Source of the DNA: Escherichia coli
GTDB taxonomy: Bacteria > Pseudomonadota > Gammaproteobacteria > Enterobacterales > Enterobacteriaceae
Strand: one strand, 5' to 3'
Length of the DNA: 64,000 nt
Assembly (NCBI RefSeq): GCF_044647545.1
Contig: NZ_CP172818.1
Shown: in pieces, positions 53,694 through 54,418 of the stretch
How the letters are laid out: every line of letters begins with the position of its first letter
Numbering within the stretch: position 1 is the stretch's first letter
Program-made: the position numbers and the translations under genes
Notes under the pieces: model-generated
The model's input: the letters and a program-made list of their open reading frames with translations, nothing else
Databases searched by the model: none
What the model was told of the DNA's origin: nothing

Positions 53694-54044
53694 AGGTTTC
53701 TCTTATGTTGGCGTTTTCTATTCAGTATAGAAGTGGGAGCGACTGGGCGAGATGCGGAAGTTCTGGAATATTTCTTTTTTTGGTGATGGTGAACTGATTG
53801 TGAGTGAAGCAATTTAGCTACTTTTTCAATGTGGCAAGTTATGGCACAGCTGGCTGGTGGCGAAGAATTTTGACGATTGAGGCATGCAGAAAAAACGGGC
53901 TCAGCTTCAGTTGATCAAATGGGGAGTGAGAAGTCCGAAACAGGATTCACTGTATAAATAAACAGCTATTTTGCTGAGGAAGCGTAAGATAACGGCGGGT
54001 GCCTGAAGCTTTCCGGTTTCAGGTTAACTCTGAGGTCTGGAAAG

Positions 54045-54233
54045 ATGAAGCCCCAGGACGATATTTCTATCAACCCTGGGGCTGCCACTCCAAACCCGAA
54101 CAATTTGGATGGTAGTCCCTTCTTCGCATGGAGGCAATATAAACATGCTGACGAAATATGCCCTTGTGGCAGTCATAGTGCTGTGTTTAACGGTGCTGGG
54201 ATTTACGCTTCTGGTCGGCGACTCGCTGTGTGA
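54045..54233 (+). CDS. mokE: mok-like overlapping reading frame of the hok locus
   Basis: 62-aa ORF overlapping the hok start in another frame, as in hok/mok/sok loci. Confidence 0.35.
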
Positions 54234-54297
54234 GTTTACGGTGAAGGAACGTAATATTGAGTTTAAGGCTGTTCTCGCTTACGAACCGAAGAAGTAG
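54145..54297 (+). CDS. hokE: Hok-family type I toxin (50 aa)
   Basis: [50 protein letters not shown]; single transmembrane helix; GC hairpin in 3' UTR. Confidence 0.85.
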
Positions 54298-54418
54298 CCG
54301 TTGTGCGGGGAGCAATCCCCGCATATCCGGTTGTCAGGTCAGGATGGTAAGGCACCTGCTTTACACTTTCGCCCGTGGTCAGTGATGGCTGCGGGCGAAT
54401 CGTACCAGATGTTGTCAA

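Follow-up and report, generated by a model that had tools for sequence, protein, structure and literature searches.

Is the copy of insertion sequence (IS) 186 that lies between the toxin gene hokE and entD in Escherichia coli K-12 a regular part of this locus, and what does its absence mean for the toxin-antitoxin module? We addressed this question in a stretch of 64,000 nucleotides (nt) of an E. coli genome (GCF_044647545.1, contig NZ_CP172818.1; hereafter the window), in which the 725-nt spacer between ybdK and entD (positions 53694-54418) holds one hokE locus. A first-pass annotation of the DNA had described an uninterrupted hok/mok locus here, suggested that MG1655 carries IS186 between hokE and entD, and proposed an IS-free, ancestral-like state or a different strain background that would matter for the function of the locus. 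Our analysis indicates that the interval very probably represents a hokE/mokE/sokE type I toxin-antitoxin locus in its wild-type, single-copy form, from an E. coli other than K-12. Its IS186 target is empty, and its likely mechanism is like that of plasmid R1 hok/sok.

The interval was compared with MG1655 (NC_000913.3). There, sokE (607733-607792), hokE (607836-607988) and entD (609459-610079) are annotated with IS186B (608007-609351; transposase insL2) between hokE and entD, as the first-pass annotation had suggested. The IS186 core in MG1655 is 1339 bp long, running from CATAAGCG... to ...CGCTTATG, and the direct duplication GGAGTAATCC stands on either side. When IS186 and one copy of the duplication were taken out of the MG1655 spacer, the remainder was colinear with the window, and 701 of 727 alignment columns were identical (96.4%). 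The 26 differences include HokE A8V, a 1-nt indel in mokE, and C for T in the loop of the target. A blastn search of the whole window with IS186 gave chance matches of 13-31 nt only (E ≥ 0.87), none of which fell in 53694-54418. Neither an IS-free arrangement in MG1655 nor an IS remnant in the interval, the two observations named beforehand as speaking against the first-pass annotation, was found.

The site that is occupied in MG1655 lies in a GC hairpin directly after the hokE stop codon (GCGGGG-AGCAAT-CCCCGC; 54305-54322, plus strand). The first-pass annotation had recognized this hairpin and placed it 2 nt off, at 54303-54320. The hairpin contains the unoccupied IS186 target GGGG-N6-CCCC (GGGGAGCAATCCCC, 54307-54320), and the 10 bp that are duplicated on insertion (54309-54318; GGAGCAATCC), which make up the loop and upper stem, are present once in the window. 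MG1655 has three IS186 copies, one by hokC, one by hokE and one between nupC and pdeA, and the reconstructed site of each was likewise GGGG-N6-CCCC with a 10-bp GG-N6-CC duplication. An IS186 target consensus was reportedly set out by saiSree et al. in 2001 (J Bacteriol 183:6943, as cited in PMC3446290 and PMC3045373). Because insertion duplicates the target, the empty site necessarily precedes insertion and is the earlier state, and the term ancestral-like is justified in that sense. GGGG-N6/7-CCCC occurs at one site only in the 64-kb window, that of the hokE hairpin. The hairpin is not called a terminator because no U-run follows it; it is no typical terminator and corresponds to the hairpin that plasmid hok mRNAs have after their stop codon.

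The frequencies of the empty and occupied states were estimated with 120-nt queries. These replaced a search with the 725-nt interval (4886 genomes at ≥80% coverage), which is blind to the IS state since the IS sits 86% along the query. With a query centred on the site, the empty site was contiguous in 3646 of 5426 complete E. coli genomes, including O157:H7, O111:H8, an isolate of sequence type (ST) 38, and the blood isolate SF-088. With the left hokE-IS186 junction of MG1655 as the query, 1878 records were covered to at least 80%, a minority of them through the homologous hokC-IS186 junction (85% coverage, 90% identity), and from the ranks in an evenly spaced listing we estimate that ~1660-1760 records have the forward junction at hokE. 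The junction-bearing records include E. coli C, UMNK88, O104:H4, and many K-12 derivatives. These results indicate that the empty state is the majority state and that the occupied state is not a peculiarity of K-12. The anatomy of the locus, the empty site, the K-12 insertion and the frequency of each state are all direct observations on sequences.

IS186 copies of 1338-1340 bp between two copies of GGAG(T/C)AATCC were found in MG1655, E. coli C, UMNK88, 25-07338, O104:H4, ampC_0069, and EC19. Three genomes have the 22-kb backbone of the window (positions 42001-64000), from which they are one common 1-nt indel apart. The site is empty in the first, FDAARGOS_497, and is occupied by a forward IS186 in ampC_0069 and by a reversed one in EC19. 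The ampC_0069 copy is identical to that of MG1655 at 1339 of 1339 positions, the EC19 copy is its exact reverse complement, and both insertions are flanked by GGAGCAATCC. The occurrence of empty, forward and reversed states in one clonal background therefore indicates at least two independent insertions. O104:H4 carries hokE twice in tandem, and an IS186 end adjoins the hairpin of each copy; the first IS186 is a complete forward copy, and the second is reversed, judged by the bases after the shared inverted repeat. The hokE hairpin is a recurrent IS186 hot spot, because it is the single motif site in the window and is found empty, forward and reversed among near-identical genomes.

We then ask what the insertion separates. 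The hokE coding sequence (54145-54297, plus strand) specifies 50 residues, of which 5-46 match Pfam PF01848 HOK_GEF (E = 2.2e-8; 34 bits against a cutoff of 22). The protein is identical to WP_000956465.1, which bears the annotation "type I toxin-antitoxin system toxin HokE" in those RefSeq genomes whose interval matches that of the window at 100% identity, and differs from K-12 HokE only at residue 8, which is Val rather than Ala (49/50 identical). From the end of the hokE stop codon (54297) to the start of the entD stop codon (54419) there are 121 nt. The complete toxin, the distance of ~120 bp to entD and the overlapping mok frame had all been read correctly in the first pass. The mokE frame (62 codons; 54045-54233, plus strand) opens at an ATG that precedes the hok ATG by 100 nt; it is out of frame with hokE, which it overlaps and within which it terminates. 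The same out-of-frame 62-codon mokE is present in the single-copy, IS-free loci of the ST38 isolate, SF-088, NCTC11151, and FDAARGOS_497.

The spacing of the two start codons varies by one base. With the extra nucleotide at 54059, the mok and hok ATGs of the window are 100 nt apart; the distance is 99 nt in K-12, E. coli C, and UMNK88 and likewise in the entD-proximal copy of tandem hokE loci. A spacing of 99 nt brings the mok ATG in frame with hokE and gives an 83-codon fusion frame. An in-frame mok need not be a defect, because mokC of MG1655 is also annotated in frame with hokC.

The predicted full-length hokE mRNA spans 53997-54362 on the plus strand (~366 nt), with both ends placed by homology. 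Its start is also the start of a match to the Rfam family RF01794 ("sok"), which covers the hok leader/sok overlap region (53997-54153, plus strand) from end to end of the model (1-157; 79.4 bits against a gathering score of 59; E = 1.1e-17). A second Rfam match, to a microRNA, was rejected as chance (20.6 bits against a gathering score of 63). The predicted 5' end, GGGUGCCU, lies at the same position as the 5' ends of hokC (GGGUGCUU) and of R1-type hok (GGCGCUU). Folding of 53997-54362 as RNA gave a minimum free energy (MFE) of -145.6 kcal/mol, with z = -5.5 relative to 100 shuffles. An 8-bp helix was predicted in the MFE as well as in the centroid structure, formed by the tac-like element at the 5' end (GGGUGCCU, 53997-54004, plus strand) and a complementary fbi-like 3' element (AGGCACCU, 54350-54357, plus strand) that lies downstream of the IS186 insertion point.

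The paralogues have the same layout. In hokC and R1-type hok, as in hokE, the stop codon is followed by a GC hairpin, a spacer, and an element complementary to the gene's own 5' end: 5' GGCGCUU and 3' AAGCGCC in R1-type plasmid hok, and 5' GGGUGC and 3' GCACCC in K-12 hokC after removal of IS186. The sequences of the 5' and 3' elements differ among the three genes, and their complementarity is kept. The fold-back lock of R1 hok mRNA by the tac and fbi elements is established work of the Gerdes laboratory. On the folding model, the 5'-3' pairing in hokE would correspond to this lock. A second inverted repeat, TTCGCCCG-N16-CGGGCGAA (8 bp; 54368-54399), follows the fbi-like element, ahead of the entD stop codon. 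It has no T-run on either strand, and the terminator scan described below did not report it.

The antisense RNA sokE was placed at ~54041-54101 on the minus strand by transferring the coordinates of b4835 from MG1655. The region has the MG1655 sokE sequence plus 1 nt at 54059, and the predicted SokE fold is a GC stem-loop followed by the U-rich tail CUUCAUCUUU (-25.6 kcal/mol). Upstream of it, a candidate promoter was read from the sequence (54109-54137, minus strand) with -35 TTGCCT (54137-54132), a 17-nt spacer, and -10 TACCAT (54114-54109). The -10 ends 7 nt ahead of the transferred SokE 5' end. By eye, the position of this promoter is that of TTGCGC-N17-TATCCT in the R1-type locus, and it is identical in MG1655. 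For hokE itself, the candidate -10 hexamer is TAAGAT (53985-53990, plus strand), without a good -35.

A LexA-box-like palindrome, CTGTATAAATAAACAG (CTGT-N8-ACAG; 53950-53965, plus strand), lies 32 nt upstream of the predicted hokE mRNA 5' end and is conserved in MG1655. It is the sole CTGT-N8-ACAG within the 64-kb window; because ~0.5 matches are expected by chance, its candidacy rests on position and on the literature, in which hokE/sokE is counted among the SOS-induced toxins (PMC8406316). Read in this way, the palindrome would agree with hokE as an SOS-induced toxin gene.

By analogy with plasmid R1 hok/sok, these elements suggest the following mechanism. A weak promoter overlapped by the LexA box would give rise to the ~366-nt transcript, whose 5' end (53997-54004) would pair with the fold-back element (54350-54357) and hold the mRNA in a form that is not translated. 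Once the 3' end had been trimmed as far as the GC hairpin, the lock would open, and mokE would be translated and hokE with it by coupling. The SokE antisense RNA (54101 to 54041, minus strand) would block this step of mokE/hokE translation. In K-12 and ~1/3 of sequenced E. coli, IS186 sits in the hairpin loop and parts the coding region from both the fold-back element and its native 3' end. As the IS enters at 54309-54318, after the hokE stop (54297) and before the 3' element, the K-12 coding part is cut off from the predicted lock.

This separation likely explains why the K-12 locus is counted as inactivated. PMC12214031 and PMC2654758, both with reference to Pedersen & Gerdes 1999, state of the K-12 genes hokA, hokC, and hokE that they are "suggested to be inactivated by insertion elements" near the reading frames. 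The difference between K-12 and IS-free strains downstream of hokE has been known since that year. The view of the first-pass annotation that the IS matters for the function of the locus is thus plausible, and the point was already in the literature; its contrast with K-12 needs refining, as roughly 1700 of the 5426 genomes carry IS186 at this site. The detail added here is incremental and consists of repeated insertion in both orientations at one hairpin, even within one clone, and of the 1-nt switch of the mokE frame.

Several points weigh against an R1-like, functional locus. The ends of the transcript are unmapped and were inferred by homology. The hokE alleles are too alike for covariation, so that the fold-back pairing is supported by three paralogues. 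A strict scan of 53650-54470 for sigma-70 promoters and intrinsic terminators gave no match; the sokE candidate scores 8/12, below the scan threshold, and both promoters were placed by homology and by eye. It is from this anatomy that we infer how the RNA of the window allele is processed and regulated and whether its product is toxic, and an intact-looking locus need not behave like R1 hok/sok. In K-12, hokE mRNA is detectable and edited (PMC12214031), and IS186 therefore does not abolish transcription. In the same background, a study that used the Keio hokE deletion and removed six SOS toxins, hokE included, reported no persistence phenotype (PMC8406316).

In a different reading, the locus is decaying and would fail as a toxin-antitoxin module even without the IS, so that the IS186 state has no functional consequence. 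It would fit the result that the IS-free chromosomal loci hokA (E. coli C), hokB (K-12), and hokC (ECOR24) gave neither post-segregational killing nor activation by rifampicin (bioRxiv 10.1101/2025.08.07.668861), as well as the lack of a persistence phenotype after the six-toxin deletion and the tolerance of the insertion in ~1/3 of genomes. Against decay stand a toxin frame, mok, sok region and 5'-3' complementarity that are all intact and well conserved across phylogroups, and the many lineages that retain two tandem hokE copies. Moreover, overexpressed K-12 HokE, which differs from that of the window by A8V only, is toxic (bioRxiv 10.1101/2025.08.07.668861). We consider decay possible but less likely than not, and keep to a wild-type locus with an R1-like design.

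On the side of the insertions, IS186 recurs at the hairpin in both orientations, after either tandem copy and inside a single clone. Selection might favour such repeated insertion, which would uncouple the SOS-inducible hokE mRNA from its 3' fold-back element and disarm or deregulate the toxin. We regard this as improbable; if it were true, the presence or absence of IS186 would be a recurring natural on/off polymorphism of a chromosomal toxin-antitoxin locus.

The IS-free appearance could also be an assembly artefact in which a repeated IS186 copy was collapsed. IS copies are sometimes dropped in short-read assemblies, and members of the same lineage do carry IS186 at the hokE hairpin. However, a collapsed repeat normally breaks the contig, and the duplication would not be expected to remain as one seamless copy. 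Across the empty site, the window is matched at 100% identity by at least 30 complete genomes, the site is contiguous in the 3646 genomes above, and we judge an artefact very unlikely. The spacer is identical in MS6198, ECONIH1, IMT16316, FDAARGOS_497, and others, which bears out the different strain background proposed in the first pass; papers in which IMT16316 figures deal with ST131 and ST648, and the lineage may be ST648, phylogroup F. A K-12-type genome that lost IS186 by precise excision or engineering can be set aside as having next to no probability: K-12 derivatives cleaned of IS exist and the site is a perfect single copy of the 10-bp duplication, but the divergence from MG1655 listed above (26 of 727 columns) rules this out, and the 22-kb surroundings match clinical and animal isolates, with only 88 records at ≥99% identity.

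The value of the wild-type, IS-free reading lies mainly in correct annotation. A natural non-K-12 lineage keeps the full hokE RNA architecture, and the K-12 reference does not. Conclusions on hokE that derive from K-12, such as the absence of a deletion phenotype or the label "inactive", may not carry over. FDAARGOS_497, ampC_0069, and EC19 form a natural near-isogenic set that should be modestly useful for examining the effect of the IS on mRNA processing, SOS toxicity, and persistence.

The flanks of the locus are ybdK on the left (52575-53693, minus strand), an open reading frame (ORF) for a carboxylate-amine ligase of the GCS2 family (Pfam GCS2, E = 5.9e-97), and entD on the right (54419-55039, minus strand), for a phosphopantetheinyl transferase (Pfam 4PPT_N and ACPS). 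Both carry these names in the identical RefSeq genomes. Codon 46 of hokE (TAC, Tyr) and the G after it form TACG (54280-54283, plus strand), the recognition motif of TadA. This is the position at which K-12 hokE mRNA is reported to undergo A-to-I editing (40%), which codes for Cys46 in HokE (PMC12214031). Antisense to the hok leader, the RefSeq annotation pipeline (PGAP) calls a 270-nt "hypothetical protein", whose equivalent in the window would be ~53907-54176 on the minus strand. Some strains have this ORF intact, and in others, the window's lineage included, it is flagged for a frameshift or an internal stop; the call over the mok/sok region is probably spurious.

Between ybdK and entD, many strains (among them O157:H7 ATCC 35150, O111:H8, GF3-3, and O104:H4) have hokE twice, as tandem units 503 bp apart, and the window has one. 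Its HokE (WP_000956465.1) is that of the entD-proximal copy of tandem loci, and K-12 HokE (WP_000956455.1) is that of the ybdK-proximal copy of O111:H8. Hok "islets" have been described (bioRxiv 10.1101/2025.08.07.668861). Other rearrangements were seen in single strains. EC19 has an IS3-family element upstream of wzz(fepE). Strain 602354 has IS186 upstream of hokE; on the downstream side comes an IS186 end and then, where entD would be expected, an IS100kyp/IS21-family gene. In a BL21(DE3) record of 4.50 Mb (CP081489), the hokE-IS186 junction adjoins prophage fragments and a tRNA cluster; this record was excluded from the comparison, as its hokE lies in an unrelated, rearranged context. At ~43428 of the window, near the 3' end of cusC (42049-43437), the stop codon has one base fewer than in the three closest genomes (CAGCAATAATTT to CAGCAAAATTT), which adds two residues to CusC (...WQQNF) and could be a real variant or a sequencing error.

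Finally, we compared the locus with known systems. The closest is hokE/sokE of MG1655 (b4415/b4835), which shares with the window its place between ybdK and entD, the gene order, 49 of 50 toxin residues, and the LexA-box-like site, and whose sokE region and candidate promoter are alike but for one base. The window differs from it in lacking IS186, so that 54350-54357 is contiguous with the coding part, in the extra base at 54059 and in V8 for A8; its mokE is out of frame (100 nt), whereas that of K-12 is in frame (99 nt) as the 83-codon fusion.

The hok/mok/sok system of plasmid R1, for which a copy on an IncFII plasmid served as the comparison sequence, shares the Hok/Gef toxin, the overlapping mok, the leader antisense RNA (predicted in hokE), and the post-stop GC hairpin with the hokE locus. 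In R1, the -35 of the antisense promoter overlaps the hok Shine-Dalgarno region, and that of the candidate sokE promoter would do so likewise. The R1 3' element is complementary to the extreme 5' end (GGCGCUU/AAGCGCC), and its hokE equivalent is GGGUGCCU/AGGCACCU. Unlike R1, hokE is chromosomal and has a LexA-box-like site over its candidate promoter. GGGG-N6-CCCC is matched by the hokE hairpin but not by that of R1 (GGCGGGC-GCAG-GCCCGCC), and plasmid-stabilising killing is not known from chromosomal hok loci.

hokC (gef)/mokC/sokC of K-12, with IS186A, has the post-stop hairpin GCGGGG-AGTGAT-CCCCGC, a target of the same kind that is occupied and flanked by a 10-bp duplication. As in hokE, the 3' element (GCACCC, which can pair with 5' GGGUGC) is on the far side of the IS186 insertion point. 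It differs from hokE in its toxin sequence, its site between dnaJ and nhaA, the opposite orientation of IS186 relative to hok, and an in-frame mokC. The IS186 hot spots at GC-rich palindromes, such as that in the lon promoter, are like the hokE hairpin in their GGGG-N6-CCCC core, the GG-N6-CC duplication, and insertion in both orientations. The hokE target differs from the lon-promoter hot spot in that it is no promoter and is instead an RNA-structure element of a toxin mRNA.

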